The notes under the pieces were generated by a model. The model saw nothing but the letters and a program-made list of their open reading frames with translations, had not been told where the DNA came from and made no database searches. Position numbers and translations under genes: made by a program. A stretch of 64,000 nt of DNA from Puniceicoccales bacterium (GTDB taxonomy: Bacteria > Verrucomicrobiota > Verrucomicrobiia > Opitutales > LL51), in contig JAISXO010000034.1 of the NCBI GenBank assembly GCA_031270475.1, forward strand, positions 29,491 to 93,490, given 5' to 3'. Shown here one piece after another: positions 4,386-58,954 of the stretch; position 1 is the stretch's first letter, and every line of letters begins with the position of its first letter.

Positions 4386-4474
4386 AACGAATATTATGCT
4401 ATAAATTATTAATTATATGTCAATAACATAAGAAATATATTTTAATAATTGATACAAATTTCCGCTATGAAATT

Positions 4475-4509
4475 AAAAAAGCCGCAAAGACGATCCTTTC
4501 GGCTTTTTT
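4475..4509. terminator. A-run/hairpin/T-run downstream of hydrolase paralog B
   Basis: AAAAAAGCCGcAAAG-acgatc-CTTTCGGCTTTTTT. Bulged 8-bp stem with symmetric A/T flanks. Confidence 0.5.
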
Positions 4510-4551
4510 CCATGAATCACATTATTTTTCACTGATGAGATGCATCTTTTC

Positions 4552-6618: not shown

Positions 6619-7404
6619 ATGAGAGTTCTCTTGACGAACGACGATGGCATCCATTCCGCCGCATTGCAGCGTTTGGTCCGCGCGTTGATAGAAAAAAAAT
6701 GGGAAGTCTATGTTTCCGCACCGGCAATGGAACAGAGCGGTGTTGGACGGGCGTGTGGTCTGACGCGTAGTATTTCCGTCGAGCCCTTCGAAGGGTTAGG
6801 ATGTATAGCCTGGGCGGTCAACGGTACGCCATTGGATTGCGTCAATTTAGCGATTTCGTATTGGTTAGAGGGGAAGCGGCCCGATCTCGTCATTTCCGGT
6901 ATCAATTGGGGCGTCAATACGTCTATTCCGATGATTTTTAGTTCCGGTACGGTGGGTGGAGCGATCGAGGGTGCTGCCTTTGGTATACCGTCCATTGCGG
7001 TTTCCCAGTGTTTGCCGGGGCAGGATAAGCAATATATTCAGAAAAAAATCGATTTTCTCGCCCACGAAGGCCTCATGAAGAGTATCGATGCGGCTGTCGA
7101 AAAAACGGTCCAATACGCGGAAACAATCGCTAAAACATCGGATAACGTGGTCCACAACATCAATTTCCCCTATCCGACAGCTGCGGAAACGGCGGAGGAA
7201 ATAACGGTATTGAGTAACATTATGCACGGGAAAGATGCGAATTATCCGGTATATTGCGCGCTCTACGAAAAACGAGGCGAAGAGTACTATTTTGCCATTG
7301 AGCAGGATTTATCAATTCCGCCGCCTCCTGGTTCCGATATTTACACACTTCTCCAGGGAAAAATTAGCCACAGCATCGTCGATTTGCGTCGCCTTTGTTC
7401 CTAG
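6619..7404 (+). CDS. surE: 5'/3'-nucleotidase SurE
   Basis: 261 aa. The N-terminus MRVLLTNDDGIHS is the SurE signature. GINWGVN motif present. Confidence 0.9.
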   Translation: MRVLLTNDDGIHSAALQRLVRALIEKKWEVYVSAPAMEQSGVGRACGLTRSISVEPFEGLGCIAWAVNGTPLDCVNLAISYWLEGKRPDLVISGINWGVNTSIPMIFSSGTVGGAIEGAAFGIPSIAVSQCLPGQDKQYIQKKIDFLAHEGLMKSIDAAVEKTVQYAETIAKTSDNVVHNINFPYPTAAETAEEITVLSNIMHGKDANYPVYCALYEKRGEEYYFAIEQDLSIPPPPGSDIYTLLQGKISHSIVDLRRLCS

Positions 7405-7432
7405 TTGTTTTTTTGTGGAGTTAAAAAAGCGC

Positions 7433-7492
7433 TTGACAAGTTTTGGAAGGGCGTTGATGCTAGGCAGTAGAGGGTGGGAGCAAGCGGCACGT
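7433..7492 (+). promoter_or_regulatory. promoter-like module with conserved downstream motif, copy M1
   Basis: aaaaaagcgcTTGACA (7433-7438), 17 nt, GATGCT, 5 nt, GTAGAGGGTGGGAGCAAGCGGCACGT (7467-7492). Lies 150 nt upstream of the MFS gene. Confidence 0.55.
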
Positions 7493-7642
7493 CTAAGGTC
7501 GGGGACATGAGAAATAGGGAAAAGAAACTTTACGCATTTATCTTTCTGTGTTTATCGGTTTAGAAAAAAATCAAAAAAAAGTATAATATAGCATTGGCTT
7601 TATAAACTTCTAATTAAAAAAACGTTAACATGTTTAACAGTC

Positions 7643-8835
7643 ATGGGGATGGTGGCTTCTCTTTTCTATGCCTATCAGCATATTCTGCGCGTCATGCCGA
7701 GTATTATGCTTGCTGACATCATGTTACGGTTTCGCATAGATGATAGTAGTACGGTGGGGCAATTTTCAGGTGTTTACCATATTGGCTACTCTTTGTTTCA
7801 TCTTCCCATTGGTATTTTACTCGATCGATGTGGGCCTCAAAAAGTAATTCCTGGGTGCATATTGCTTTCAATTGCGGGCATTTTACGATTATTTGTATGG
7901 AGCATTGGATATGGTCTATTTTAGGGCAATTTGCTACGGGTATTGGATCATCGGCCGCCATTCTCGGTGTATTCAAAATTATCCGGAAGGCTTACAGTGA
8001 GGAGCGTTTTGGAAGAATGCTTAATTTTTCGGTCATGATCGGGTTACTTGGCGCAATTTATGGCGGGATGCCCATTCGCTATTTGTGTAAAGTTTTAGAT
8101 TGCCAAATGGTGATTGCGATCCTCGCTTTATTGGGAATATTACTGGCGTTTGTAACGTATCGGATTGTTCCTCCCATGGGCGATGCGGGTGATAAAGGGA
8201 AGCAATCGTCTCCGTTTGTCGGGATTGGATCCGTTTTAAAGAACGCAAAGGTTATGATTATTTGTTTAACGGCGGGGCTCATGGTTGGGCCACTGGAGGG
8301 ATTTGCCGACATTTGGGGACCTAAATTTTTGAATCAAGTTTTTCACATTGAGGCATCGAAGGCCAGTTTCATCCCATCGATGGTTTTCATTGGCATATGT
8401 TTTGGTGTTCCCGTTCTCAATTTCATTGCGGAAAAATCGAAAAGCTATTTAGGAACCATTATATTTTCGGGCCTACTGATGTTTATTATCTTTACGCTAC
8501 TGAGAATAGGACTCCATCCCGATACTACGGTGCTCGCAATCGAATTATTTTTAGTCGGCATATGTTCAGCGTATCAGATATTAGCCATTTACAAAGCATC
8601 GACCTATGTGCCTGAAAATGTGGCGGGCATTACGACGGCCATGGCCAATATGATCATTGTGATTTTTGGCTACGTGTTACACAGCATGATTGGAAGTGCA
8701 ATCGAACTTTTTGGCGGGATAGAAGTGGAGTCGGCTTTTCGGAGGAGTATTGCGGTTATTTCGGGAGCCTTATTACTAGGAATCGTCGGGTTTGAGGTGG
8801 TAGCCCGTATGGCCCAAAAATATGTTAAAAAGTAG
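7643..8835 (+). pseudogene. MFS transporter interrupted by a frameshift near 7900-7921
   Basis: ORF 7643..7924 carries MFS motif A (GILLDRCGPQKV). It continues sensibly only in the frame of ORF 7828..8835 (...SILGQFATGIGSSAAILG...), a -1 shift. This is either a genuine pseudogene or a 1-nt sequence error. Confidence 0.55.
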
Positions 8836-15001: not shown

Positions 15002-15133
15002 GGGAGAGAGTGAAATAAAAATAAAAACATTGCAAGACTACATCCCATCTTTCTCTACCCAGTGCCCAAAGCCCGTTGGTGGAGTTGAAATTCTGAGGAT
15101 ATATATTTTTTTGAGAGTTTTTCAAAAAAATGC

Positions 15134-15197
15134 TTGACAATATTGAAAGATGCAGGCAAACTTGGGCGGGATGATAGGAAAGGGTGGGAACAAAGGA
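15134..15197 (+). promoter_or_regulatory. promoter-like module, degenerate copy
   Basis: aaaaaaatgcTTGACA (15134-15139), 17 nt, CAAACT, then ...AAAGGGTGGGAACAAAGGAC. Lies 100 nt upstream of gmk. Confidence 0.45.
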
Positions 15198-15296
15198 CTT
15201 TCGTTTCCACAATTTTCATCCGACAGAAAATTTTTGTGGCAAGACTTCAAAAATAATCTTGAATTAGGAAAAATTCCTCGCAGAAGGATATAGATT

Positions 15297-16552: not shown

Positions 16553-17056
16553 ATAAATTTCTAAAAGAACCTAAAAATATTGTCTGCATTTTTTATTAGT
16601 TCCTCTTTTTTCTCAAAGGTAAAAACATCGAAGAATAAAAGGTTATACATTTGTTCCCTAATGGTTTCTTTTCGATTTTACGGAAAAGGTTTGTTTCTCT
16701 CGATATCCAAATATTCCCGAAACCCACTAGCGAACATAGCAATCATCCTCTAAAACATTTCTAATTTCATTTTTCATTTTAGGGGAGATATTTGGCGACT
16801 CATAAATTTCTAAAAGGACCTAAAAGCATTGTCTGTATTTTTTATTAGTTCCTCTTTTTTCTCAAAGGTAAAAACATCGAAGAATAAAAGGTTATACATT
16901 TGTTCCCTAATGGTTTCTTTTTGATTTTACGGAAAAGGTTTGTTTCCCTCGATATCCAAATATTCCCGAAACCCACTAGCGAACATAGCAATCATCCTCT
17001 AAAACATTTCTAATTTCATTTTTCATTTTAGGGAAAATATTTGGCGACTCATAAAA
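16553..17056. repeat. tandem duplication, 2 x ~249 bp
   Basis: 16553-16801 and 16802-~17056 are near-identical by eye, with a few substitutions or indels. Each unit contains the 3' end of a minus-strand open frame (...PKMKNEIRNVLEDDCYVR*) plus ~170 bp downstream. Confidence 0.9.
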
Positions 17057-17263
17057 TTCTTCTAGTTGGTACATAGCGTTTGCTCTTTCCTTAGGCGGGA
17101 GAACATAGTTTTTTACATTTCCCAGGCATTTGCGACACTTGTTGTCTGCCGCTTGAATTACGAAGTTGTTTAACTTAAATCTTGCTGTTACATGAACTTT
17201 TCTAGATCCAAAGGCTTTCCTTCCTAAAACTTCCCCAGTATCCCCATCCAGAGCAGATGTCCT
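16976..17263 (-). pseudogene. start-less 95-codon open frame (gene remnant?)
   Basis: The frame is open from the TAA at 17264-17266 to the TAG at 16976-16978: RTSALDGDTGEVLGRKAF...NKCRKCLGNVKNYVLPPKERANAMYQLEEFYESPNIFPKMKNEIRNVLEDDCYVR. The first ATG is at codon 64. No family recognised. Confidence 0.3.
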
Positions 17264-24327: not shown

Positions 24328-25821
24328 CTATTCGAAACGGCCATTTTCCACGTGTACGAGCTCCCAGAGGCGGTAGCGTTGACTACCTTTGATAAAAATA
24401 TTTCCCTGAATTTTCCTTTGAAAGATTGCCTTTATTCGTTCTATTTCTTCGCCATAGAAAATTGTTAACGTTCCGGCGATTGCCTTTAATCGATTACAAA
24501 AAATTTTCATTTCTTCTCCGACGGCGAAAATTATTACGTTTTTTTTATTAAAAAAATATTCCGCCAGAACTTCATGATAATTTTGTGAGAATTCTCCCAA
24601 CTCGCGCATTCCGCCCAGGACGTAGGTATTATCGCCGGGGTATTTTTGATCAAAAAATTGCAGTGCGTCCATCATGGCAACTGGATTTGCGTTGTAGCAG
24701 TCGAGGTAAACTTCACGGCCTTGGAAATAGATTGTTTCGCCCCGCAATTTCCCGGGATTCCACAACAAAATACGTTTTTGGATGGTATCGTCGGAGAGTC
24801 CTAAAATTTTTACTGCCGTTGCTGCTTTGGCGAAGTTTTCTTTTTGCCCGGCGCTCATTTCCGGAAATCTGAAGGTGGTGCCATCGAAATAGGTTCCATG
24901 TAGCGTGATTTTATTTTCTTCCGTGGATTTCTTTTCTTTTGGGAATTGGAAGTGGGACCAGTTTTGGTGACTTTCTTTTTGATCGCTACTCATTTCCGGT
25001 GCCGTAAAAGTAGCTCCCGCGGAATAAGTTTCCTGCAAAGTGAATTTCTTTTCTTCCGTAGATTGATTTTTTTTGCCGCATTGGAAGTGAGTAAAGCGAG
25101 GGAAATGCGAAATGTTTTTCCCTTGACCAATGACGATACATTGAGCGGCGAGTCGGCGGAACGGCATATACCCAAGGCAACTTTCCGGAATGATCCCAAT
25201 TTTTTTGCGTGCGATAGTATTTTCTAAAATTTTGCATTTTTCATTGACAAGCTGTTCAAAATTCGTAAAATTCGCGATATGTGTGAGTGTGATCCCAATT
25301 GTAATAGAGATTTCTGGTTCGACTAAATCGATGATGCGATCCATTTCGCCAGGGTGGTCGATTCCGCCCTCGATAACGCCGAAACGCTGGGATTTCATGT
25401 GACTGAGCGTGAGTGTAACGCCGAGTTCATTGTTGAGATTTTCGCGTGTTCCGTAGGCGTCGTCGGCGAGCAGGAGTTTGAGCATATCTTTTGTGGAAGT
25501 TTTGCCGTAGCTGCCGGTGATAGCGATGATGGTATAACTTTTCCGGTGAATTTTTGCGAGTGTTCTAGCGGCTTCGAGAACGTCAGGGACGCGGAGTTGA
25601 GGCAGGGTGAGATTTTTATTGATCCGGTTAACGAGAGCGCAGCTTGCTCCATTTTGTTGGGCGTGAGCGAGAAAATCGTGACCATTCCGTTGGGCGGTGA
25701 GGGCAAGGAAACAATCGCCGGGTTGGAGGGTTCGCGTATCGTTCCAGAAGCCGTTAATTTCGTTCGGAAGCTGGCCATAAAACTCTATTTCTGGCAACCG
25801 TTGAAAGAGGGTTGTCTCCAT
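24328..25821 (-). CDS. murF: UDP-N-acetylmuramoyl-tripeptide--D-alanyl-D-alanine ligase, with an internal 45-aa duplication
   Basis: 497 aa. ITGSYGKTSTKDML Mur-ligase P-loop. Order of N-terminal, central and C-terminal domains is typical of MurF. Confidence 0.85.
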   Translation of the reverse strand: METTLFQRLPEIEFYGQLPNEINGFWNDTRTLQPGDCFLALTAQRNGHDFLAHAQQNGASCALVNRINKNLTLPQLRVPDVLEAARTLAKIHRKSYTIIAITGSYGKTSTKDMLKLLLADDAYGTRENLNNELGVTLTLSHMKSQRFGVIEGGIDHPGEMDRIIDLVEPEISITIGITLTHIANFTNFEQLVNEKCKILENTIARKKIGIIPESCLGYMPFRRLAAQCIVIGQGKNISHFPRFTHFQCGKKNQSTEEKKFTLQETYSAGATFTAPEMSSDQKESHQNWSHFQFPKEKKSTEENKITLHGTYFDGTTFRFPEMSAGQKENFAKAATAVKILGLSDDTIQKRILLWNPGKLRGETIYFQGREVYLDCYNANPVAMMDALQFFDQKYPGDNTYVLGGMRELGEFSQNYHEVLAEYFFNKKNVIIFAVGEEMKIFCNRLKAIAGTLTIFYGEEIERIKAIFQRKIQGNIFIKGSQRYRLWELVHVENGRFE

Positions 25822-25964
25822 AATGGTGGTAGTATAAATTAACGGAAAAAGGGAAGCGATAAAATTTTTTTCGAGTTAATCATTGATTCGGTTAGCGAGA
25901 GCGCAGTTTGCGTCATTTCGTTGTGCATGAGCAAGAAAAATTATAATTCGAGAATAAAAAGCAC

Positions 25965-26023
25965 TTGACAGAGTAAAAAATCGTCCAAGGCTAGGGAGCA
26001 GGGGAGAGAGTAAGCGAAGCGTC
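25965..26023 (+). promoter_or_regulatory. promoter-like module, degenerate orphan copy
   Basis: aataaaaagcaCTTGACA (25965-25970), 17 nt, AGGCTA, 5 nt, CAGGGGAGAGAGTAAGCGAAGCGTC. It points at the 3' end of the convergent rpoN. Confidence 0.4.
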
Positions 26024-26081
26024 TGGAGGTGGTCTTGATTGTAAAGTCATCGTCAATTTTCGTTAATTATTTATTTATTTT

Positions 26082-27458
26082 TTATATATATCGCCGCACG
26101 TTTGCCGACGGAATCGCAAGGAACGTACGATATTTAGTCACGGTTCGTCGAGCAATCCAAATGCCTTCATTTTGAAGTATTTGGGCGATTTTTTCATCGC
26201 TGAGCGGTTTGTTTTTGTTTTCATTTTTGATAATATTTTTAATACTCTCTCGGAGCGTGTTTTGTGCGATGAGGGAGCCATGATTACCGTGGGAAAAAAA
26301 GAAATCCAGCGGAATAATTCGATGTGGAATTTGAACATATTTATTTTTGACAGCCCGGGAAAGTGTTGTGGAGTGGATTTCGAGGCATTCCGCCACTTGT
26401 TTTTGACTCTGCGGACGAAGAAAATCACTGCCATTTTCTAGGAAGTCGCTTTGAAATTTCAAAATATATTCGGCAATTTTTTGTAAAGTTTCCCGGCGCT
26501 TGTGCAGCATCTTAACCAAAAATTGGGCTTGTTGTTTGTTCTCGGTAAAAAAATTACGGTCTTCGCGCTTTGATGAATGGGTAAACATCCTTAGGTAAAG
26601 GTCATTTATACGAATTTCCGGTGCACCGCGAACTTCGCAGCTCCAATGGCCGTCAATTTTTTGGAAAATAATTTCTGGAACAATCGCCGGATTGGCGTTG
26701 GGCATAATCGTTTTGAGCGGTGCAAAATTTAGCAATTTCAAGGGCACCAAAAGTGTACGCAATTCGGATGCCGTCTTACATAATTTTCTCCGCAATTTAG
26801 CGAATCGGCGATGCTCGAGGTCATCGAAATAGTGTGCAACGAGGTCATGGAGCGGCGTATTTTCCGGAATTTGCAACCGAAAGCAATCCTGCAAATCATG
26901 GGCACCAATCCCCTTCGGCGAAAGCGATCGCAATATCGCATAGGCTGTTTCAAAAACATTTTGCCGCGCATCGTCGGTCCGCGCATCGCAATTTTCCTCG
27001 CCATCCGGCCAAGAAATCCCGTACTGCTGAGCCGCATCCTCTGGCAAAAATCCGCGATCATCGAGGCTATTAATTAGCGTCGTCAGTGCCGTTTTTGTCG
27101 CCTCGTCCAAATCGGGAACCTGGGCGAGGAGGTAATCCTCAGGTGAATCTTCGGCACTAATATTTTCTAAAAAATTTGGATTGCTTTCTTCGTTATTTGG
27201 TATATCGCTCGTGCGCGCGCGCGCGCTCATATTAATAGTACTTTCCTTACTTGCACTCGCTGGAAAGCCGTAGGGAGCCGTGTCGGCGATGTCGAGAAGG
27301 GGGTTGCGCTGAATTTCCGCAGCAATGAGCCGGTAAAGTTCCTCGGTCGGCAATTGCAAAATGTCCAGAGAACGGAGCATGGACGGAGATAGTCGTTGGC
27401 TTTGAATTTGTAGGCGATCGTTCCTTAGGTCCACGGCGTAAGCATGGAGAGATACCAA
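26082..27458 (-). CDS. rpoN: RNA polymerase sigma-54 factor
   Basis: 458 aa. Gln/Leu-rich region I, HTH region, and RpoN box ARRTVTKYR near the C-terminus. Confidence 0.95.
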   Translation of the reverse strand: MVSLHAYAVDLRNDRLQIQSQRLSPSMLRSLDILQLPTEELYRLIAAEIQRNPLLDIADTAPYGFPASASKESTINMSARARTSDIPNNEESNPNFLENISAEDSPEDYLLAQVPDLDEATKTALTTLINSLDDRGFLPEDAAQQYGISWPDGEENCDARTDDARQNVFETAYAILRSLSPKGIGAHDLQDCFRLQIPENTPLHDLVAHYFDDLEHRRFAKLRRKLCKTASELRTLLVPLKLLNFAPLKTIMPNANPAIVPEIIFQKIDGHWSCEVRGAPEIRINDLYLRMFTHSSKREDRNFFTENKQQAQFLVKMLHKRRETLQKIAEYILKFQSDFLENGSDFLRPQSQKQVAECLEIHSTTLSRAVKNKYVQIPHRIIPLDFFFSHGNHGSLIAQNTLRESIKNIIKNENKNKPLSDEKIAQILQNEGIWIARRTVTKYRTFLAIPSANVRRYI

Positions 27459-27708
27459 CTTTTTTCAAGAAATGAAGTTAATTTTTGAGGGAATCAATCT
27501 GTGCCAAAAGAATTTCCGCAGCAATGAGCCGGTAAAGTTTCTCGGTCGGCAATTGCAAAATGTCCAGAGAACGGAGCATGGACGGAGATAGTCGTTGGCT
27601 TTGAATTTGTAGGCGATCGTTTCTTAGGTCCACGGCGTAAGCATGGAGAGATACCAACTTTTTTCAAGAAATGAAGTTAATTTTTGAGGGAATCAATCTG
27701 TACCAAAA
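27311..27708. repeat. tandem duplication, 2 x 199 bp, covering the rpoN 5' end and upstream region
   Basis: 27311-27509 and 27510-27708 differ at only a few positions by eye. The distal copy holds an rpoN start codon at 27657 and 49 identical or near-identical codons. Confidence 0.9.
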
Positions 27709-35010: not shown

Positions 35011-36234
35011 TTATCGATGGGAATTTTTCTTAAAAATATGGATAATTTTGTCCATGGCAGTGACCAGTTGCTCAATTTCTTCCAATGTGTTGTAAGGCGC
35101 CAGAGATAGACGAACCGTTCCGCCAATGCCGAGCGCATGCATCAACGGTTGCGCACAGTGATGCCCGGCTCGTACCGCAATTCCCTCGCTATCAAATATA
35201 CTGGCCACATCGTGGGGATGCGCGGATCGATGAATGAATGAAATAATTCCCGTTCGCTGATTGTTCGGCTTGAGAACCTCAATGGACGAATTTTGTCCCA
35301 AAATTTCCAAAACATGCCCCTTGAGTCCCTCGCCATATCTTTGTGCCTCAATCCAATCTATCTTCCCGAGAAATCGAATCGCTTCCCGTAGCCCCGTAAC
35401 TCCAACAACATTCGGCGTACCTGCTTCAAAACGAGTAGGAATCTCGCGGAATAAGGCCGGTTGATCGAAGGCTACGCGATCGACAATCCCTCCGCCTAAG
35501 TGGTACGGCTGAAAATGCTCCAGGTGTTCGGCGCGGCCATAGAGAAATCCAATTCCCATCGGCCCAAAAGCCTTGTGCGCGGAAGTTGCAAAGAAATCAC
35601 ACTCCATCTCCCGTACATCAATCGGTCCGTGTCCCAATGATTGCGCGCCATCGACGATGCAAAGCGCTCCAACCCTATGCGCCATCTGGGCAATTTTTTT
35701 TATCGGATTAATCGTCCCTAAAACGTTTCCAATGTGCGCAATGGAAACAATCCGCGTGCGCTCCGAAAGCTTGTGCCCAAAATCATTCCCGTCGAAATCG
35801 CCCGCTTCCGTCATCGATACAATGCGAATCGTCGCCCTAAGCCGCTGCCATGGAAGAATATTAGCGTGGTGTTCCTGGACAAATAAAATAATTTCATCTT
35901 CCGTTGTGAGAGATGCGAATTGGGATGCTAGAAAATTGATGCCTTCCGTCGTCCCCGAATTGAGAATGATTTCCCGTGGCTCGCGAGCGTTGATCCAATG
36001 GGCGATTTCTCGGCGTGTAGACTCGTAAATTTCCTCGGCCTTCGCACTGAGATCATATATCCCGCGGTGGACGTTAGCGTTAGTTGTGCGCAGATGGTAG
36101 GCCATTGCTCCGATGACACGCTCCGGTAATTGAGTTGTGGCCGCGTTATCGAAGTAAATCAGAGGCTTTTCAAAACGATTGTGACCACTTAAGATCGGGA
36201 ATTCCTGGCGAAAGGCGTGAACATCGAAACTCAT
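35011..36234 (-). CDS. sufS: cysteine desulfurase (SufS/CsdA class V aminotransferase)
   Basis: 407 aa. HHANILPWQ, SAHKAFGPMGIG (PLP lysine) and RAGHHCAQP motifs. Confidence 0.9.
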   Translation of the reverse strand: MSFDVHAFRQEFPILSGHNRFEKPLIYFDNAATTQLPERVIGAMAYHLRTTNANVHRGIYDLSAKAEEIYESTRREIAHWINAREPREIILNSGTTEGINFLASQFASLTTEDEIILFVQEHHANILPWQRLRATIRIVSMTEAGDFDGNDFGHKLSERTRIVSIAHIGNVLGTINPIKKIAQMAHRVGALCIVDGAQSLGHGPIDVREMECDFFATSAHKAFGPMGIGFLYGRAEHLEHFQPYHLGGGIVDRVAFDQPALFREIPTRFEAGTPNVVGVTGLREAIRFLGKIDWIEAQRYGEGLKGHVLEILGQNSSIEVLKPNNQRTGIISFIHRSAHPHDVASIFDSEGIAVRAGHHCAQPLMHALGIGGTVRLSLAPYNTLEEIEQLVTAMDKIIHIFKKNSHR

Positions 36235-36366
36235 AGCGAGATTTGTCTAGCCCTTTAGAATTTTTTACCGTTGTCAAGCTTTTTTATTTTTTAGTGTTAT
36301 TCCCGTGGATGAATTCCCATCCCGAAGATATGATAAATAACAGTTCAGTGTGTGGCGGAAAATTTT

Positions 36367-36426
36367 ACGCGCCGCTTGCTCCCACCCTCTACCTTCCAGT
36401 CTTGAAAGAATTTCAGGACCTATCAA
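36367..36426 (-). promoter_or_regulatory. promoter-like module with conserved motif (faces sufS)
   Basis: The minus strand reads CTTGATA (36426-36421), 17 nt, AAGACT, 5 nt, GTAGAGGGTGGGAGCAAGCGGCGCGT. Lies 133 nt upstream of the sufS ATG. Confidence 0.55.
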
Positions 36427-36478
36427 GTCGTTTCTGAAAAGATAATTTTCAAAAATAAAAATATTTTGTATTTTCTTC

Positions 36479-36506
36479 TTGACATAATTCATAAAATCGC
36501 GACAAT
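36479..36506 (+). promoter_or_regulatory. candidate promoter of the pilin-like gene
   Basis: TTGACA (36479-36484), 16 nt, GACAAT (36501-36506). Divergent from the module at 36367-36426. Confidence 0.45.
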
Positions 36507-36628
36507 CGCTTCATGATTGATTTGCAAAGCAACAAAGCGTAAAAAGTAAAAGTAAATCTTTTACGTTAGTTGAGATTGTTTTTACTATTGCCATCATCGG
36601 CATTTTACTAGCCATTCTTCCGCCGGCA

Positions 36629-37330
36629 ATGAGTGCCATCAAACTCGGCGCACAAAAGGCAAAGGATCAATCCAACTTGCAAAAAATTGCCGAAGCTTGG
36701 CGCGGAGCCGTGATCGATCGCGGCTGGATAATCGATGGTGAAAGTGGCGGAAATATAAAATCTACCGATTTTGCAGAGCAATTGGCCGGACGAGATAATG
36801 GGAAAAGTATCTCGGATATGATTTTGAATGATCCCTATGTTTGGATTTCTCCAGGCGATAAATATGCCTCAAGAATTCAAAAAGAATCACTTTGTATTTT
36901 AGTGGATGATTCTGTCCGATTCGCTGACGCTTTTATGGAAGTTAATGGCAATTTTATGGTCTCGGGAAAATACCTACTTAGTTATTGCATCGTATGTAGG
37001 TTGCCCGGGAATGTTCCTCTCGATACGACGCCGCTCGGTTTTACGCGTGGACTTAACAAAAATGGAAAGTGGGATGAAAAAGCTAGCCTATATGGCTCGA
37101 AGGGCGGCTATGTCGTTTTCTGCGATGGTCACGTCGCGTGGTTTGACGGCAGTAAGCCAGCACGATTCTTGAAATGGGGTGGGTCGGGTGTTACACGACT
37201 GATATTTGTGAAGCAGTTCCTGGTGGCACTTGGATTACATGTGCCCACGATTATGATAGAATTCAAGCAGCTTACTGGGGCGAAGATGCTAAAGCCATCC
37301 TCAGTTCCGCCGGTATCGGTTGATGATTGA
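36629..37330 (+). CDS. prepilin-type / H-X9-DG family protein (N-terminus apparently frameshifted)
   Basis: C-terminal DGHVAWFDG fits H-X9-DG. In-frame upstream sequence (36560-36628) encodes SFTLVEIVFTIAIIGILLAILPPA but has no in-frame start. The ATG at 36513 is in another frame and stops at 36540. Confidence 0.6.
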   Translation: MSAIKLGAQKAKDQSNLQKIAEAWRGAVIDRGWIIDGESGGNIKSTDFAEQLAGRDNGKSISDMILNDPYVWISPGDKYASRIQKESLCILVDDSVRFADAFMEVNGNFMVSGKYLLSYCIVCRLPGNVPLDTTPLGFTRGLNKNGKWDEKASLYGSKGGYVVFCDGHVAWFDGSKPARFLKWGGSGVTRLIFVKQFLVALGLHVPTIMIEFKQLTGAKMLKPSSVPPVSVDD

Positions 37331-37335
37331 AAATT

Positions 37336-37613
37336 TTCACGTGCCGCTTGCTCCCACCCTTGAAAGAATTTCAGGGCCTGTCAAGTCGTTTCTGAAAAGA
37401 TAATTTTCAAAAATAAAAATATTTTGTATTTTCTTTTTGACATAATTCATAAAATCGCGACAATCACTTTATGGTCGATTTGCAACGCAACAAAGCGTAA
37501 GGAGCAAAAGTAAATCTTTTACATTGATTGGAATCGTTTTTATTATTGCCATCACCGGCATTTTACATGCCGCTTGCTCCCACCCTTGAAAGAATTTCAG
37601 TGCCTGTCAAGTG
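37336..37613. repeat. second copy of the divergent-promoter / pilin 5' segment, flanked by two short-form modules
   Basis: 37336-37567 matches 36365-36608. Short modules at 37339-37384 and 37565-37610 (minus) read TTGACA, 17 nt, AAGGGTGGGAGCAAGCGGCA(C/T)GT, which is a 13-nt deletion relative to the long form. Confidence 0.85.
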
Positions 37614-37854
37614 ATTTTTTTGGAATTATTAATACTAGCTTCGTCATTTGGATTTCTAGTATCGGTGAAAGTTGAAATAAATCGCCAGGAATACCTTGAA
37701 AAACTGATATCTACTTTCCCTCTTTGAAAAAACCGGACCTCTGCCAAGTGATTTTTTGAAAATAAATCAATAAAAAATAACAAAACATTGATAGATTGCG
37801 TTTCCAGTTTCCAAAAAGTAATTCCCGGAATTTTTATTTATACTTTGACAATAA

Positions 37855-39054
37855 TTGCCGAAAAATACGTTTATTCCCATGGACGCGCTCGTCAAACTCG
37901 TCGACGGTATCGATACAATTGTTGGACAGGAGTCCCTATCGGAACGCCTATCGCAAAAAAAAATCCTGAAAGTGAAACTTGGTGTCGATCCAACTCGCCC
38001 CGATTTGACCTTTGGCCATATGGTCGTTTTCAATAAATTGCGCCAGTTTCAGGATCTCGGCCACGAAGCAATTTTGCTGATCGGCGACCATACTGCTACC
38101 ATTGGCGATCCTTCCGGTCGTTCTTCGACGCGCCCGGTGTTGACTACCCAAGAGGTCGACCAAAATGCCAAAACTTACCTCGAGCAGGCCTTCAAAATTA
38201 TCGATCCCGAGAGGACGACGATTCGGCGCAATAGCGAGTGGTTTCGAAGGATGACGTTCGACGATATGCTCATTATTGCCCGTAAAATGACGGTTGCGCG
38301 GATGCTTGAGCGGGACGATTTTGCGAAACGCTACCGCGAAAATGAGCCCATTTCCATTGTCGAGTTTTTATATCCTTTGATGCAGGGGTATGATTCGGTC
38401 ATGCTCGAAGCCGACGTCGAGCTTGGCGGAACGGATCAATTTTTCAATTTATTGGTTGGCCGCGCGCTCCAAAGGGATTATGGCCAGCGGGAGCAGATTG
38501 TCATCACGATGCCGCTCATCGTCGGTCTTGATGGGAAGCGTAAAATGTCAAAAAGTTACGATAATTACATTTCATTTAACCATTCTTCAAAGGATATGTT
38601 TGGGCGGATCATGTCGATTCCGGACGAAGTGATGTGGACCTATTTCAAGTTATTATTGGAGTATTCTGACGGGGCGATCGAGGCGTTGAAGGGGGGGCAT
38701 CCCATGGATGCGAAAAAATTTTTGGCTCGATCGTTGGTGGCGCGATTTTACGGTCCAGAAGTCGGGGAGCAAGAGTTAGCGGATTTTGAGGCGGTATTTT
38801 CGCATGGAGAAATCCCGGAAGCGATGCCGGAATTTTCGTTACAAGCGATGGCAAAGGATCCGGTTACTTTAGCCGACGCGATGGCATATTCGCAATTTTT
38901 TGAAAGCAATCGAGAGATTCGCCGACTCATTGAGCAAGGAGCTGTCAAAGTTAATGGGAAGAGTGAAAAGAATTTTAAGTTTCCTTTACGATCCGACCGC
39001 TGTCCCCATGTCATTCAGTCTGGCAAGCGCATATTTTTAAAAGTTATTCCGTAG
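37855..39054 (+). CDS. tyrS: tyrosyl-tRNA synthetase
   Basis: 399 aa. Class I motifs (TFGHMV HIGH-like, KMSKS). C-terminal S4-like domain (IRRLIEQGAVKVNG). Alternative start at 37879. Confidence 0.9.
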   Translation: MPKNTFIPMDALVKLVDGIDTIVGQESLSERLSQKKILKVKLGVDPTRPDLTFGHMVVFNKLRQFQDLGHEAILLIGDHTATIGDPSGRSSTRPVLTTQEVDQNAKTYLEQAFKIIDPERTTIRRNSEWFRRMTFDDMLIIARKMTVARMLERDDFAKRYRENEPISIVEFLYPLMQGYDSVMLEADVELGGTDQFFNLLVGRALQRDYGQREQIVITMPLIVGLDGKRKMSKSYDNYISFNHSSKDMFGRIMSIPDEVMWTYFKLLLEYSDGAIEALKGGHPMDAKKFLARSLVARFYGPEVGEQELADFEAVFSHGEIPEAMPEFSLQAMAKDPVTLADAMAYSQFFESNREIRRLIEQGAVKVNGKSEKNFKFPLRSDRCPHVIQSGKRIFLKVIP

Positions 39055-39505
39055 AAAATAATTAGTGCGTTTATGGCTAATTATTTTTTGCATTATCGCA
39101 GTCGAAAAATTATTTTTTTGTAACGGCGATATATCTTTAAATAGATTTTGAGGCGGTATTGCACACAGAGAAATTGAAAAAAAACAAAAAGGATTTTAAG
39201 ATTCCTTTATAATTCGACCGCTGTCCCCATATTATTCAGTCCGGCAAGCGCATATTTTTAAAAGTTATTCCGTAGGAAATAATTAATGTGTTTACGGTTA
39301 ATTATTTTTTGCATTATCGCAATCGAAAAATTATTTTTTTGTAACGGCGATATATCTTTAAATAGATTTTGAGGCGGTATTGCACACAGAGAAATTGAAA
39401 AAAACAAAAAGAATTTTAAGATCCTTTTACGATTCGACCGCTGTCCCCATGTCATTCGGTCTGGCAAGCGCATACTTTTAAAAGTTATTCCGTAGGAAAA
39501 TGATT
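38972..39505. repeat. tandem repeat, ~2.4 x ~221 bp, reiterating the tyrS 3' end
   Basis: ATTTTAAG...CGACCGCTGTCCCCAT...GGCAAGCGCATA..TTTTAAAAGTTATTCCGTAG recurs at 38972, 39193 and 39413. The units also carry AGATTTTGAGGCGGTATT, which matches tyrS at ~38785. Confidence 0.85.
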
Positions 39506-39545
39506 AATTTATTTACAATTGAATCTTTTTTTTTACACTAATGCA

Positions 39546-47043: not shown

Positions 47044-47668
47044 ATTTTTTTTGTATTACGAATTGTTGATGTTTTTTTTATTCTGTTCGGGGTGTACACT
47101 TTTCAAGACGACTCCCGATCGGACGCGTCTATTTGACATTGGATTTCGGGGGACGCAATCGGCGATGTCTTCGGTAGACAGTGCAAAAATTTGTCTTATT
47201 TTGGGGAGTTTTCCGGATTATCTCGATGGATCACCGATCATCACGAAGATTGGTGAGCATGAATTGAAAAATAATCCGCGCTATCGTTGGGCCAAACCGC
47301 TTTCGGAAACGATTCTTTACATTGTAAAACGCAGTATTTTGCAAAGTTTTTCGAAAGTTTACGTCTATGAATTCCCCAAAGATACCATGGATAAGATTGA
47401 TTTTACGCTATGTTTAGACGTCGATGGGCTGGAGATTTGCGAAGTGACGCAGCGGATTATCTTTAAAGGGACGTGGACTTTTTTAGATGCGAAGCAACGG
47501 AATATAACCCATGCTCCATTTGAATTTTGCGAGTCATTTGATGATTTTTCGGATCGTTACGGAGAAATAGTGGCCAAGGTGGAGCAGGTTATCCATCATT
47601 TAGGCGACGCGATTGTAAAGGAAATGGATCTTATTTTTCTAAAAAGAATAACGGGAAATAATCCCTAG
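47033..47668 (+). CDS. ABC-transport auxiliary lipoprotein (PqiC/YmbA-like)
   Basis: MKTRFFLYYELLMFFLFCSGC lipobox. Its position directly after an MCE gene is typical. Confidence 0.6.
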   Translation: MKTRFFLYYELLMFFLFCSGCTLFKTTPDRTRLFDIGFRGTQSAMSSVDSAKICLILGSFPDYLDGSPIITKIGEHELKNNPRYRWAKPLSETILYIVKRSILQSFSKVYVYEFPKDTMDKIDFTLCLDVDGLEICEVTQRIIFKGTWTFLDAKQRNITHAPFEFCESFDDFSDRYGEIVAKVEQVIHHLGDAIVKEMDLIFLKRITGNNP

Positions 47669-47958
47669 CAAGCCGTTTGGGATGCGTTTAAAAGAAGAAG
47701 AGAATATTAGTGGAGAGAGGCGTCGCATTTCTTTTTTTGATATGAATGATAGAAATAAGAAGAAATAGTGGCCAAGGAGGAGCAGGTTATCCATCATTTA
47801 GGCGACGCGATTGTAAAGGAAATGGATCTTATTTTTCTAAAAAAAATAACGGGAAATAATCCCTAGCAAGCCGTTTTGGATGCGTTTAAAAGAAGAAAAG
47901 AATATTAGGGGAGAGGCGTCGCATTTCTTTTTTTGATATGAATGATGGAAATAAGAAG
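47563..47958. repeat. tandem duplication, 2 x 198 bp, spanning both 3' ends of a convergent gene pair
   Basis: 47563-47760 and 47761-47958 are near-identical. The junction reads gatAGAAATAagaAGAAATAgtgg, with AGAAATA microhomology. Confidence 0.9.
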
Positions 47959-49224
47959 ACTGATTGCGGAACCTAAAAGAAGAATACGCGTCAAAATAAA
48001 ATATGAACCAAAACTCTTTTGAGAATAACTGAACGCCGATGGCGCAATGGCGGCAAAAAGAGAGACGATCAGTGCCACGCTAGACATGATGTGCCCAAGG
48101 TGTTTCCGGCCAAAAAGTTTGGGCCAAGGCGCCGCAGAGGCGATTCCGTAAAGCGACCAGTTAAATCCACACAAGCAAATAAAAGGCCATAATCCCCACG
48201 ATTGGCAAACGTTTTCTAAAAAAAACATCAGAGCCGCATTGGTCGAAAAAATTGCGAGTAAACAGCAGCGAATTGAAGATCGATCCTGAAGAATACTGAA
48301 TAGAACTCCCGCAATCGCGCTGACTACGGCGGCAAATGGAAAAATGTTCAGTGGATTGGCAGTGCAGGCGTGGGCCTCGCGAAAAATATCGACGATGTGA
48401 ATCTCTAAACCCGTTGAAGTAAAAGTCGACGTCGAAACCGCTAGAACAAAAATCCAAAAATCAAAGGTACCAAGTGCCTGACGCAACGTGTAGTCGCGCG
48501 CAACAATTGGATGATCACTGTTGTTTTTTAATCCATCTCGATTGCTGCCAACCGACTGAGGATTGTCGCGACATAGGGCCCAAATAAAAGGAAGCATTAC
48601 CAAAAGAATAATGAGGCCTTGCGCCATCCAAGCCGTGAGGTAGCCCAATTCTTCGATTAAACGGTGAATAATCTTCGGCGCACAACCAAAGGTAATGGAA
48701 ACAAAAATACCGGAAATGCCAATCATGGTGCAACTTCTTTTATCGTACCACTGGAGAAGCATCATGCGACTGGCGAGCGGGATGAGGTTTTGTCCGCATA
48801 GTTTTAGTAAAAAAAGTCCCGGGAAAAGTATGCAAGTAACGGCGACAAAGTGCGAGGTACAGCCTTCCACCGAGGCGATGGCAGAAGCGATGTGGCCCAT
48901 GAAAAGCAGTGTTAATCCCAGCATTAATGTGGCATAGGTAACGGCTCGACGAATTCCGATGCGGTCAAAAAGTGTGCCTAAAAGTGGCAGTAACAGGGCA
49001 CTGAGCAGGGTCGCGAAGAAAAAAATATTACTGAAATGATTGCGAGAAATGTGTAAATTTTGAATGAGTTCTTCCGTAAAGGGGCAAAGGCCGACGCTAT
49101 GGCCAGGAATACTAATCATTCGCGCGCAAAGAGAGGTAAAAAAGATGACCAAACCGTAAAAAAATGGTACACGCTTTGGAGCAAAGGGAAAATTTGGGGC
49201 AAAAATTTTCGATTTTTTCGACAT
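47905..49224 (-). CDS. MFS transporter
   Basis: 439 aa, ~12 predicted hydrophobic helices, and an MFS motif-A-like LGTLFDRIGIRR. Confidence 0.75.
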   Translation of the reverse strand: MSKKSKIFAPNFPFAPKRVPFFYGLVIFFTSLCARMISIPGHSVGLCPFTEELIQNLHISRNHFSNIFFFATLLSALLLPLLGTLFDRIGIRRAVTYATLMLGLTLLFMGHIASAIASVEGCTSHFVAVTCILFPGLFLLKLCGQNLIPLASRMMLLQWYDKRSCTMIGISGIFVSITFGCAPKIIHRLIEELGYLTAWMAQGLIILLVMLPFIWALCRDNPQSVGSNRDGLKNNSDHPIVARDYTLRQALGTFDFWIFVLAVSTSTFTSTGLEIHIVDIFREAHACTANPLNIFPFAAVVSAIAGVLFSILQDRSSIRCCLLAIFSTNAALMFFLENVCQSWGLWPFICLCGFNWSLYGIASAAPWPKLFGRKHLGHIMSSVALIVSLFAAIAPSAFSYSQKSFGSYFILTRILLLGSAISLLISIIHIKKRNATPLP

Positions 49225-55928: not shown

Positions 55929-56007
55929 AGATTCCTCCTTTACCCATATTGGGAAGTTTTGAAGAAATTCAAGTTTTTGAAAAAACTTATTGGCGAAGGG
56001 ATTTTTT

Positions 56008-56067
56008 ACATGCCGCTTGCTCCCACCCTCTACTCTCCAGCCTTGCCGCACTTTTTATTGTTGTCAA
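56008..56067 (-). promoter_or_regulatory. promoter-like module with conserved motif (faces recD2)
   Basis: The minus strand reads aaaaaaaCTTGACA (56067-56062), 17 nt, AAGGCT, 5 nt, GTAGAGGGTGGGAGCAAGCGGCATGTAAAAAA. Confidence 0.55.
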
Positions 56068-56096
56068 GTTTTTTTAATATTTTTTTAAGTGATGAC

Positions 56097-56179
56097 GGTG
56101 CTCGAGGAGGGACTCGAACCCTCATGCCTTGCGGCACCAGATCCTAAGTCTGGCGTGTCTACCATTCCACCACCCGAGC
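56097..56179 (-). tRNA. tRNA-Leu (anticodon UAG)
   Basis: The reverse complement folds as a cloverleaf: acceptor GCTCGGG/CTCGAGC, anticodon stem CCAGA/TCTGG with loop CTTAGGA, long variable arm TGCC-gcaa-GGCA, and T arm GAGGG-TTCGAGT-CCCTC. CC of CCA is encoded. Confidence 0.9.
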
Positions 56180-56411
56180 TTATTTTCGCAGTGTAGGAGC
56201 GCTTTCATCGATGTCGACCAAATTTTTTGAAAAATCGGCCAATGGCATCACATTTTATAATTCGAAATTAAAGGTCAACTTTTTTGGGAAAATTTCTTTC
56301 ATTTATAAATAATATTTCACTTTTCCATAAGAAAAACTTCTACTTATGATTTTTTCATTTTATTTCTTGAATTGGGTATTGTTTTTTTTATATAATAGGG
56401 GAGCAAAAATT

Positions 56412-57311
56412 ATGGAGATGTTAATCATTTTAGTAGTAGGGCTTGGTATTTTACTATTTTCGAGTATATTTACCGTTGAGCAACAAACCTGTGCCATCAT
56501 TGAGCGTTTTGGAAAATTTCATCGCATTGCCGGGCCGGGACTGAGTATTCTCATTCCGATTATCGATCAAATTCGGCTCCGTTTATCGCTAAAAATTTGC
56601 CAGCTCGATGTAAGTATTGAGACTAAGACCCAGGACAATGTATTTATCAATCTGATGGTCTCGGTACAATATCGCATTTTACCGACAAAAATTTACGAAG
56701 CGTTTTACATGTTACAGAATCCGACGAAGCAGATTGAGGCATTTGTTTTCGATGTTGTTCGGGCGCAAGTTCCGAAGATTTTGCTTGACGATGTTTTTGA
56801 GAAGAAGGACGACATTGCGAATGCGGTCAAGTCGGAATTGTCCGATGTGATGGCGGAGTTTGGCTATGAAATCGTCAAAGCTCTTGTGACGGACATTTCG
56901 CCGGCAAACAATGTCAAAGCGGCGATGAATGAGATTAATGCGGCGCAGCGGGTACGAGTTGCGGCTACGGAGAAGGGTGAGGCGGAAAAGATACTCAAGG
57001 TGAAGCAGGCGGAGGCGGAGGCGGAGGCGAGTATTTTGCATGGAAAGGGTCTTGCGGGGCAGCGGCACGCGATTGTTTCGGGCTTGAAGGATTCTGTCGA
57101 AGAGTTTGTGCGCCAAGTTCCTGGACTTTCGCAGAAGGATGTCATGGAGATGGTCCTTTTGATTCAGTACATTGACACGCTGAAGGAGATTGCCGGTTCG
57201 TCGAAGTCGAATGTCATTTTTGTTCCCAATTCTCCCGGAAATGTTGCTGATTTAGCCAATCAGTTCCGCGAATCGATTATCATTGGCCAGCAGATGAGTA
57301 AAATGGAATGA
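56412..57311 (+). CDS. SPFH/band-7 (stomatin/prohibitin-like) membrane protein
   Basis: ATG 56412 gives MEMLIILVVGLGILLF as TM anchor. Then TVEQQTCAIIERFGKF...GPGL and a coiled EAEAEA region typical of the SPFH domain. Confidence 0.85.
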   Translation: MEMLIILVVGLGILLFSSIFTVEQQTCAIIERFGKFHRIAGPGLSILIPIIDQIRLRLSLKICQLDVSIETKTQDNVFINLMVSVQYRILPTKIYEAFYMLQNPTKQIEAFVFDVVRAQVPKILLDDVFEKKDDIANAVKSELSDVMAEFGYEIVKALVTDISPANNVKAAMNEINAAQRVRVAATEKGEAEKILKVKQAEAEAEASILHGKGLAGQRHAIVSGLKDSVEEFVRQVPGLSQKDVMEMVLLIQYIDTLKEIAGSSKSNVIFVPNSPGNVADLANQFRESIIIGQQMSKME

Positions 57312-57504
57312 GAAAAATTTATAAATTTCCCGAAAAAACCATCCATCCAAAGGGAGGGTCCGAGAGGCTCTCCCAATTTTTGTTTGTACTAAATTATTTT
57401 GAAATTTTATTATTTTTTTAAGATATTCTCGCTGATTTATTTCAATTTCCTCCGGTACTGGAAACTTAAATGACAAGGCTACCATTAATATTTAAAAAAA
57501 CAAC

Positions 57505-57564
57505 TTGACAGGTATTGAAATTCTTCCAAGTTTGAAGGGTAGAGGGTAGGAGCAAGCGGCATGT
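57505..57564 (+). promoter_or_regulatory. promoter-like module with conserved motif, orphan copy
   Basis: aaaaaaacaaCTTGACA (57505-57510), 17 nt, AAGTTT, 5 nt, GTAGAGGGTAGGAGCAAGCGGCATGTGAAAAA. The next gene (mnmE) is convergent. Confidence 0.5.
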
Positions 57565-57607
57565 GAAAAATAGAGCGTAAATTTTTTAGAATTAATTAAT
57601 AGTTTAC

Positions 57608-58954
57608 TTATTTCCCGACGCAAAATTGATTAAAAATTTTCCCGAGCATTTCTTCGGTACTGTATTGACCCGTGATCTGGCCCAACATTTCCAAAGCCAA
57701 TCGCAAATCACTGGCGCATAGTTCGTAGGATTGTTGATTATCGAGAACATTTTTTGCGGAAGCGATCAAGTCATGAGCCGTTTGAAAAATTTCCCGGTGG
57801 CGCTCGTTAATGGCAATTGTTGTCGCCGTGGGGACGAATTTATTTTCCCGAATTTTTCCTGCAATGGTCGCTTTTAAAACATCAATTCCCATACCGTGTT
57901 TAGCAGAAATGGATATTTGCGAAAAATCTTTCAGTGTCTCCAAAAAGTTTGGTGGTAAATTTTTAGTGAGGTCCATTTTGTTAAAAACAAGAATGCATAC
58001 TTTTTTTTGAAGTTCATTTACGATTATTTCTCCAATAGGAAGGGGCACATTCTGATCCACAATGATGAGGCAAAGATCCGCGGAACGAATGTGCTCGATT
58101 GTTTTTTGAATACCGAGTTGTTCGATAGCGTCATCCGTGGCCCGCAACCCGGCCGTGTCGACAATTTTTATCAAAAAACCTTCAATTGTAATCGTTTCGC
58201 AAATAAAATCGCGGGTCGTTCCCGGAATGTCACTCACCAATGCCCGTTCTTCGTTAAGTAGCGCATTGAGTAAACTACTTTTTCCCGCATTTGGATGCCC
58301 AACAATCACTACCGAAATACCGTGGAGAAGCGTTTTTCGGAATTTGTGACTGTCGATAATTTTTTTAATCTCATTTAATATTTTGTCAAATTTATCTAAA
58401 ATTCCACTGTCAAATTCGAGGTTTTCGTCGACAAAATCAATGCGTGCTTCGATCTCCGCAAGCAACGAAAGTAATCCATCGCTAAAATTAAAAATCTTTT
58501 CACTGAGTGTGCCTTGCAACTGTTTTTGAGAAACTTCAAGCGCACTCTCATGGGTCGCGTGAATGATGTCCAATACCGCTTCCGCTTGGCAAAGATCGAT
58601 TTTGTGGTTTAAATAGGCGCGCTTCGTAAATTCTCCCGGTTCGGCCATGCGGCATCCCGAAAGCTGTAAATCCTCAATAATTAAACGAATAATCAATGGA
58701 TTGCCGTGACAGTCGATTTCCATGGAATCCTCGCCCGTGTAAGAGCGTTCGCCAGAAAAAAATAATAAAATAACTTGATCGAAAACTTTTCCGGAAGTGG
58801 ATCGGTAATTCGCTAAAAATACGGAATGAGTAGCCAGATTCTCTTTCCCAAAATGCCTTCCCATCAGTGTCCGCGTTAAAGGACCACTCACGCGAATCTT
58901 AGCAATGGCCGATACCCCAAACGGCGTGCCTAGGGCGACAATGGTGTCAACCAT
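57608..58954 (-). CDS. mnmE: tRNA modification GTPase MnmE
   Basis: 448 aa. N-terminal DTIVALGTP, G-domain GHPNAGKSSLLN / DTAG, and C-terminal ...CVGK. Confidence 0.95.
   Translation of the reverse strand: MVDTIVALGTPFGVSAIAKIRVSGPLTRTLMGRHFGKENLATHSVFLANYRSTSGKVFDQVILLFFSGERSYTGEDSMEIDCHGNPLIIRLIIEDLQLSGCRMAEPGEFTKRAYLNHKIDLCQAEAVLDIIHATHESALEVSQKQLQGTLSEKIFNFSDGLLSLLAEIEARIDFVDENLEFDSGILDKFDKILNEIKKIIDSHKFRKTLLHGISVVIVGHPNAGKSSLLNALLNEERALVSDIPGTTRDFICETITIEGFLIKIVDTAGLRATDDAIEQLGIQKTIEHIRSADLCLIIVDQNVPLPIGEIIVNELQKKVCILVFNKMDLTKNLPPNFLETLKDFSQISISAKHGMGIDVLKATIAGKIRENKFVPTATTIAINERHREIFQTAHDLIASAKNVLDNQQSYELCASDLRLALEMLGQITGQYSTEEMLGKIFNQFCVGK

Follow-up and report, generated by a model that had tools for sequence, protein, structure and literature searches.

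The spacer between a Band7/HflK-like gene (56346..57311, plus strand) and mnmE (57608..58954, minus strand; NCBIfam equivalog model NF003661, 392.9 bits against a cut-off of 380) in the 64,000-nucleotide stretch of DNA analyzed here (the window) carries a copy of a repeated intergenic module at 57485..57574 on the plus strand (nhmmer E=1.1e-19). This copy comprises an A-tract (57494-57500), the heptamer CTTGACA (57504-57510, the -35 element TTGACA occupying 57505-57510), a 17-nt spacer (57511-57527), the -10-like hexamer AAGTTT (57528-57533), the leader GTAGAGGGTAGGAGCAAGCGGCATGT (57539-57564), which begins about six bases after AAGTTT, and an A-run (57566-57570). With 1 mismatch in its 17-nt core it is close to the family consensus, and it ends 34 nt before the mnmE stop; as the original prediction had stated, the copy is well preserved and the only feature downstream of it is the 3′ end of mnmE on the opposite strand. 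Just upstream lies the terminator-like hairpin of the Band7 gene (57352-57374), which is conserved in relatives. The 3′ flank of the Band7 gene also displays a conserved hairpin motif, CCATCCATCCAAAGGGAGGG...CTCCC, in the window (57335-57385) and in the corresponding spacers of the related contigs L002, L016, L018, L019, and L020, and this motif is by far the best preserved 3′ element of the Band7-mnmE spacer.

A second, diverged orphan is located at 25955..26029 on the plus strand (nhmmer E=4.3e-6), where an A-tract precedes CTTGACA (from 25964; -35 TTGACA at 25965-25970), followed by a 16-nt spacer, the hexamer AAGGCT (25987-25992), and a diverged G-rich leader (25993-26022); a conserved TTGTAAA..CAT motif trails the copy to about 26060. 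The module aims, as had been proposed, at the 3′ end of rpoN, the sigma-54 gene (26082..27458, minus strand; TIGR02395, 311 bits), with a gap of 53 nt to the rpoN stop, and on its upstream side murF (24328..25821, minus strand) is transcribed away from it. Since rpoN and murF both occupy the minus strand, this module is antisense to both flanks and sits between tandem genes; the earlier description of the two orphans as facing convergent genes therefore applies at 57505, between Band7 (+) and mnmE (-), and not at 25965.

The profile-positive copies in the window number seven (7421+, 25955+, 36356-, 37330-, 37553-, 55996-, and 57485+). Three of them precede genes on their own strand: the copy at 7421..7500 (plus) lies upstream of an MFS transporter ORF (7828..8835), that at 36356..36456 (minus) lies upstream of sufS (35011..36234), which also has its own leaderless CTTGACA promoter-like motif at ~36272-36278, and that at 55996..56077 (minus) starts ~20 nt after tRNA-Leu (56097-56179, minus) and lies upstream of recD2. 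Two others are short-form orphans on the minus strand, one at 37330..37414, which runs into the 3′ end of a prepilin-like ORF (36629..37330, plus) and is part of a duplicate of the 36386-36613 region, and one at 37553..37633, 226 nt upstream of the first; each lacks 14 nt, and the deletion restores an A2/T6 hexamer, AAGGGT, at a spacing of precisely 17 nt. Both derive from a duplication that covered the sufS-side module, a promoter-like motif divergent from it, and the 5′ end of the prepilin-like gene. By eye, a promoter-like motif with a degenerate, expanded leader (gataggaaagggtgggaacaaaggac) was also noted at 15133..15200 (plus), below the profile threshold.

The prepilin-like gene itself (36478-37330, plus) has an N-terminal FTLVEIVFTIAIIG segment in frame with the ORF at 36629..37330, and a partial duplicate lies at ~37436-37560. 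Its promoter-like motif, the CTTGACA at 36478, stands back to back with the sufS-side module, and both were duplicated together. Downstream of the preceding in-frame TGA there is no start codon, and the ATG nearby is out of frame; the gene is probably a frameshifted pseudogene. Small coding sequences within the modules were considered and rejected: three window copies (57548-57567, 56004-56023, and 37561-37580) contain an SD-like (A/G)GGAG, 8 nt, and an ATG with an immediate stop (ATG-TGA/ATG-TAA), the ATG being replaced by GCG or ACG in most copies of other species, and GTG-initiated ORFs in arrays are not credible, as they run through the next promoter.

Across its copies the module consists of four parts, namely an A-tract, CTTGACA, a 16-17-nt spacer with an nAnnnT hexamer (AAGGCT type), and the conserved leader GTAGAGGGTGGGAGCAAGCGGCRYGT, and by its sequence the repeat family has the appearance of a strong bacterial promoter joined to a conserved leader rich in G. 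Per-position information was taken from a profile of 115 nt, built from 39 module copies and run with nhmmer: CTTGACA is near-invariant, the spacer is variable, and CCAAGGCT is conserved, with the most conserved block, GGTAGAGGGTGGGAGCAAGCGGCRYGT, followed by a weakly conserved A-run. Conservation thus peaks in the leader block, at the predicted RNA 5′ end, and the 16-17-bp spacing and the A2/T6 of the second hexamer are kept in every copy. A leader 20-mer pattern has 6 matches in the window against 0 expected, which, together with the profile E-values of the two orphans, argues that neither is a chance match.

Searching with this profile yielded 75 copies across ~0.3 Mb of related DNA, grouped into 34 sites. 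When one genome per species was scanned with an exact 21-mer, 13 of 15 loci proved to be the module, all in termite-gut Puniceicoccales MAGs, and the remaining 2 were unrelated sequences; judged by this one-genome-per-species scan, the family is confined to termite-gut Puniceicoccales MAGs. The MnmE and RpoN encoded in the window each have a 100% identical counterpart on a Puniceicoccales MAG contig. Seven loci were returned by a metagenome scan with the 21-mer, none of them the module: two are unrelated sequences of ~41% GC, and five, like L008, are a high-GC palindromic repeat and were set aside. That palindromic intergenic repeat (L008, L027, L028, L029, and L031) contains the exact 21-mer GGGTGGGAGCAAGCGGCGCGT without the promoter-like part, has a GC content of ~66-68% in four metagenome loci, and comes in L008 from a Hyphomicrobiales MAG; it is apparently an unrelated REP-like element sharing the 21-mer string. 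Rfam 15 returned only tRNA over the whole window at the gathering threshold, and only tRNA and spurious miRNA-hairpin matches in the arrays at E<=1; a full-text literature search for the leader sequence gave nothing relevant, only unrelated primer matches. A tRNA-derived origin was discarded, with 0 tRNA-model matches at E<=1 across the L002 array. On two related contigs, IpgD-family (inositol phosphatase effector-like) and ankyrin-repeat proteins are encoded (L016 6272-7318; L019 5932-7941), a hint of a host-cell-associated lifestyle for the lineage.

The upstream half of the module is plausibly a promoter, judged by its letters. As expected of a sigma-70-type -35 element, CTTGACA is nearly invariant in the 39 copies, and TTGACA is present in both orphans. 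The -10-like hexamers (AAGGCT, AAGTTT, and AAGGGT) are weak by the E. coli consensus, matching TATAAT at only 2-3 of 6 positions, and consequently a consensus promoter scan made no calls at 57505 or 25965. The module nonetheless has its A-tract, -35, and spacing in common with gene-proximal promoter-like sites: the region upstream of the window's tRNA-Leu has an A-tract, TCGACA, a 16-nt spacer, and TACACT, and leaderless intergenic sites read AAAAAAG-CTTGACA-N17-AATACT, CAAACT, or AGGGCT. The promoter model does not explain why the ~30 nt after the start form the most conserved part, nor why the leader block stays intact despite the 14-nt shift in the short forms. Given that the leader corresponds to no known RNA, is not generally in a hairpin, and survives this shift, its conservation suggests recognition by some factor or ongoing homogenization. 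A sigma-54 promoter reading of the leader was rejected by eye on either strand, the GG/GC spacing being unfit.

Comparison with relatives distinguishes the histories of the two orphans. Six related contigs keep the gene order infA-mnmE, with a Band7 gene next in the opposite orientation, and occupancy of the spacer varies among them: L016, the closest relative by MnmE (78% identity), has two tandem copies, 150 nt apart and aimed at mnmE; L017 and L002 have degenerate traces only; and the mnmE-Band7 spacers of L018, L019, and L020 contain no module. In the window, the mnmE-facing copy is carried by a dispersed duplicate of about 165 nt (57405..57570, plus) that is homologous to ~37575-37735 (minus), in an array near tyrS, with most aligned columns identical and the homology reaching roughly 100 nt upstream of the -35. 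Its closest paralog is the window copy at 37553-37633, not the L016 copies, which suggests that the mnmE site is re-seeded or homogenized within genomes. In the explanation preferred below, this copy would be a dispersed duplicate of recent origin, in a spacer where occupancy shows turnover from one species to another.

The rpoN-murF spacer, conversely, is occupied in the same orientation in 3/3 relatives examined (L021, L022, and L023), with one copy in L023, two in L022 (191-nt unit), and four in L021 (about 250-nt unit; four units by eye, three of them above the profile threshold). The derived leader GAGTAAGCGAAGCGT and spacer AATAAAAAATCGTCC are common to the window, L021, and L023, and the L022 copies retain the canonical leader; a TTGTAAAATT..CAT motif ~35 nt past the leader is kept in the window, L021, and L023 and also in L022, such that the unit is conserved to about +70 across four species. 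The copy at 25965, originally characterized as degenerate, has not decayed at random: its variant leader, GAGTAAGCGAAGCGT, is shared with positional orthologs in two other species. The same site and orientation in relatives, together with the shared derived leader and spacer, indicate an old, vertically inherited, stable variant, which, on account of this age and inheritance, is possibly useful, for example in damping or insulating rpoN/murF transcription.

These histories bear on the proposal that the modules are ordinary gene promoters and that the two orphans are dead relics, left behind as genes were lost, rearranged, or locally duplicated, and are neither autonomous nor active. The genome has numerous tandem duplications of 200-250 nt and, beside modules, at least one probable pseudogene; the orphans at 37330 and 37553 clearly derive from a duplicated sufS-side promoter region; and L017, L018, L019, L020, and L002 have an empty or decayed mnmE site, all of which would be expected of relics. 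The proposal is nevertheless quite improbable: the rpoN-facing copy has been kept in all three relatives examined, where it has also been amplified, and its promoter half is intact; the mnmE-facing copy is nearly consensus; and, family-wide, orphans match gene-facing copies in frequency, whereas no leaderless motif is an orphan.

The last point emerges from the orientation of the family as a whole. After orthologous sites were collapsed, 10 of 24-27 sites point at a gene on their own strand, and 14-17 point at a 3′ end on the opposite strand. The same-strand targets are mutually unrelated (aspS, dprA, a greA-like gene, rpsA, tkt, two ABC ATPases, sufS, recD2, and an MFS transporter), and the opposite-strand 3′ ends, of genes or tRNAs, include those of mnmE, rpoN, pgm, gap, a parA-like gene, gspF, and a metallophosphoesterase gene. 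Gene calls in the related loci come from a simple ORF heuristic; as a control for it, leaderless intergenic motifs (A-tract plus CTTGAC[AC]) were scored in the same sequences, and 8/8 of these promoter-like motifs point at a same-strand gene (module versus leaderless orientation, Fisher one-sided p=0.002; ~0.004 without three weak or promoter-half-only matches). Between tandem genes, modules lie opposite to both neighbors at 14 sites (orthologs included) versus 2 sites at which all share one strand, a mostly antisense placement that is odd for a useful promoter.

Head-to-tail arrays are a further feature of the family. L002 has 12 units after tRNA-Leu (3409-5806), ending against gspF; L011 has 6 units upstream of rpsA (1027-1726); L003 has arrays of 4 and 6 units (122-726 and 7077-7975); L005 has 3 units plus one inverted copy; L018 has 2 units after tRNA-Leu, ending against gap; and an array in L021 spans about 1850-2720. 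Two unit types alternate in the L002 and L011 arrays. In L005 (1999-2394) the single copy is head-on to the array of three, ~30 nt apart, which would create convergent promoters if all were active. Several short contigs end inside arrays, which suggests that arrays break assemblies, and because the related loci are all termite-gut metagenome assemblies, mostly with similar k119-style contig names, a contribution of assembly to the arrays is possible.

Downstream of tRNA-Leu, a module is present in the window (next gene recD2), in L002 (gspF), and in L018 (gap). More broadly, same-strand modules were observed just 3′ of tRNA-Leu(tag) in three species and of tRNA-Ser(gct) in two, irrespective of the next gene (window 55996-56179; L002 3300-3500; L018 12627-13132; L009 891-1519; L015 5661-6289). 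Recurrence of orphans at the same positions, common arrays, roughly random orientation, and the retention of the tRNA-Leu-downstream module in three species with different next genes together argue that the unit is not tied to a downstream gene, in support of the initial suggestion that the module is an autonomous unit rather than merely a shared gene promoter.

Autonomy of this kind could also belong to a repeat that is no promoter at all, i.e., REP/REPIN- or MITE-like selfish DNA or a protein-binding site, accumulating in harmless intergenic spots, with its promoter look incidental or secondary. Near-random orientation and many copies at 3′ ends and in convergent spacers are typical of REP/MITE families, the -10 is poor, and the leader starts with GTAG and has GTGGGAG/GGGAGC as in Pseudomonas REP 16-mers (PMC3116915); moreover, a Gsp477/Ct408 subfamily has an inverted, diverged leader copy ~50 nt downstream, and L005 has its inverted module. 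An inverted partner is not general, however (median z=0.4, with z>=3 in 5/65 copies); the fold from the leader scores z=+1.84, and the leader GGGTGGGAGCAAGCGGC is not self-complementary by eye. Conserved terminal inverted repeats were not found, A-run/T-run pairs flanking 3 of 4 copies and none the fourth, and no transposase or RAYT was seen within the 64-kb window and the partial loci. The A-tract, perfect CTTGACA, 16-17-nt spacing, and A2/T6, moreover, constitute an architecture also seen at this genome's promoter-like sites close to genes, and it survives in the variants with the 14-nt deletion. A non-promoter repeat is accordingly considered rather unlikely.

If the promoter halves are active, the predicted starts lie ~7 nt past the hexamers, close to 57540 and 25999; plus-strand transcripts would then reach mnmE at ~68 nt and rpoN at ~83 nt, antisense to each. 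A terminator search downstream of the mnmE-facing copy made no call; a candidate antisense terminator inside rpoN (a weak hairpin at 26196-26208) was dismissed, its conservation being uninformative because the hairpin falls within conserved rpoN codons. The region from the leader onward (57538-57640) folds at z=+1.84 versus shuffles, which leaves the predicted mnmE orphan transcript unstructured; the predicted orphan RNAs in general fold no better than shuffles and contain no credible ORF. As neither orphan is followed by a convincing terminator, and the predicted RNAs have no fold better than shuffles and no credible ORF, antisense transcription is, of the two products first envisaged, likelier than a discrete leader-only RNA if the sites fire.

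These properties weigh on the idea that the modules are multicopy small or antisense RNA genes, in which the 5′ leader serves as a seed or protein-binding handle and the gene-proximal copies are 5′ UTR versions. The most conserved block does lie at the predicted RNA 5′ end, every array unit has the promoter-like part, the rpoN-facing unit is kept to about +70 with TTGTAAAATT..CAT in four species, and certain unit types are more stably folded than shuffled sequences (type B, z=-2.9). Such genes are unlikely all the same, as most unit folds are at shuffle level, including that of the mnmE orphan, a per-unit intrinsic terminator (hairpin plus U-run) was not seen in the units, the post-leader sequence differs among subfamilies and species, transcripts of the short forms would begin within the leader and lack half of it, and there is no Rfam match.

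The opposite strand offers another role, that of a 3′ element for the convergent gene (Rho-loading-like) that terminates or stabilizes mnmE and rpoN transcripts. As modules between tandem genes are usually antisense, the gene-strand RNA carries their reverse complement just past the stop; the reverse complement of the leader, GCCGCTTGCTCCCACCCTCTAC, is rich in C and poor in G, the UP A-tract reads as a T-run, and no other intrinsic terminator was called after mnmE. This role is very improbable, given that no minus-strand intrinsic terminator (hairpin plus T-run) was called at either module, spacer hairpins vary between subfamilies, and about 40% of sites have no upstream opposite-strand gene to serve.

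The best explanation, held with about even confidence, is that the module is a self-contained promoter and leader cassette, a lineage repeat that spreads independently of downstream genes. The cassette would consist of a sigma-70-type promoter (an A/T-rich UP-like tract, a consensus CTTGACA -35, a 16-17-bp spacer, and a weak AAGGCT-type nAnnnT -10) and a conserved, G-rich leader of ~25-30 nt as the first transcribed sequence. It would be amplified by tandem duplication of roughly 105-250-nt units, with occasional dispersal or gene conversion of roughly 165-230-nt segments, neither of which would depend on the presence of a downstream gene. Both orphans would then be ordinary family members; their promoter halves are intact, which suggests that they may fire, in which case transcription would run antisense through the final codons of mnmE and rpoN. 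A recombinational mechanism (tandem and ectopic duplication and gene conversion) appears the most economical, and the window is full of 198-249-nt tandem duplications, the size range of array units.

The many duplications in tandem or nearly so, whose units measure 198-256 nt (299 nt in one case), include four TRF-scored arrays (16553-17060, 27311-27708, 38966-39516, and 47563-47959), with 91-98% matches, and, from a repeat search, the duplicate pairs 29114/29333, 30484/30710, 34818/35074, and 62294/62593; all may possibly be assembly artifacts. Of those placed against the ORF list, several fall at gene boundaries, one covering the rpoN 5′ end and one the tyrS 3′ end, and a leaderless promoter-like motif is duplicated at 30673/30898.

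A more ambitious extension would make the leader modules one coordinated sense/antisense regulon, in which a single trans-acting factor reads the leader, whether in the DNA (+1..+30) or at the 5′ end of the RNA, and thereby switches on strong promoters that drive some genes and silence others, and copy number is tuned by tandem duplication; the driven housekeeping genes would be rpsA, aspS, sufS, recD2, and others, and those silenced by firing against their 3′ ends rpoN, mnmE, pgm, gap, and parA. Such a regulon is distinctly unlikely.

If the orphans are active, the cassette represents a proliferating promoter in uncultured gut-associated Verrucomicrobia that introduces antisense transcription at core genes, the one for sigma-54 among them; it would be a natural case of regulatory DNA spreading apart from genes and rewiring expression in both sense and antisense. 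The 6 units upstream of rpsA and 12 after tRNA-Leu amount to an unusually clear tandem amplification of a promoter, and the module family offers a tractable case for the evolution of promoter copy number in compact bacterial genomes. Even if the orphans are inactive, the family is a lineage-specific repeat that breaks assemblies and can mislead annotation.

Among known systems, the closest concept is the putative mobile promoter (PMP); promoter-bearing miniature repeats, REP/REPIN sequences, and tandem small-RNA arrays are partial analogs. Cyanobacterial NsiR1 is encoded by a tandem small-RNA gene array in which each gene has its own promoter. The module similarly forms head-to-tail units of roughly 100-250 nt, each with a promoter-like sequence and a conserved 5′ part, but it lacks per-unit terminators and a conserved RNA fold, and the cassette also occurs directly upstream of housekeeping genes. 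Like REP/REPIN sequences, which RAYT transposases mobilize (PMC3116915), the module is extragenic, G-rich, and high-copy, has a GTAG/GTGGGAG-like start, is often at gene 3′ ends, and occurs as singlets, clusters, and occasional inverted pairs; the similarity of the leader to Pseudomonas REP 16-mers is, however, limited to GTGGGAG/GGGAGC (PMC3116915), and the module differs in that its leader has no palindromic core, inverted doublets are not predominant, arrays are direct, and a full promoter-like architecture is present. The Correia elements of Neisseria, an example of promoter-bearing miniature repeats (cited in PMC3575422), are short, high-copy intergenic repeats with promoter elements that can give transcripts into neighbors in either orientation. 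The module is likewise short, high-copy, and intergenic and carries promoter-like elements; it differs from the Correia and MITE elements so described in that terminal inverted repeats, target-site duplication, and transposon-like ends were not found in the four copies checked, and in its spread, apparently by tandem or segmental duplication. PMPs are highly similar non-coding segments of at least 50 nt with a -35 region, located upstream of unrelated genes within one genome, shared between related species, and without an Rfam match, for which the means of spread is given as unknown; their definition considered the -150..-50 regions upstream of genes alone (Matus-Garcia, Nijveen & van Passel 2012, as summarized in PMC3575422). 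Measured against that definition, module copies with ≥80% identity across ≥50 nt precede unrelated genes, both in the window (sufS, recD2, and MFS) and in relatives (aspS, dprA, tkt, an ABC ATPase, rpsA, and a greA-like gene). It departs from PMPs so defined in that the two orphans, and 14-17 of the 24-27 collapsed sites, lie elsewhere than upstream of a gene, in that it forms head-to-tail arrays, and in that its best conserved part is the leader downstream of the -10.
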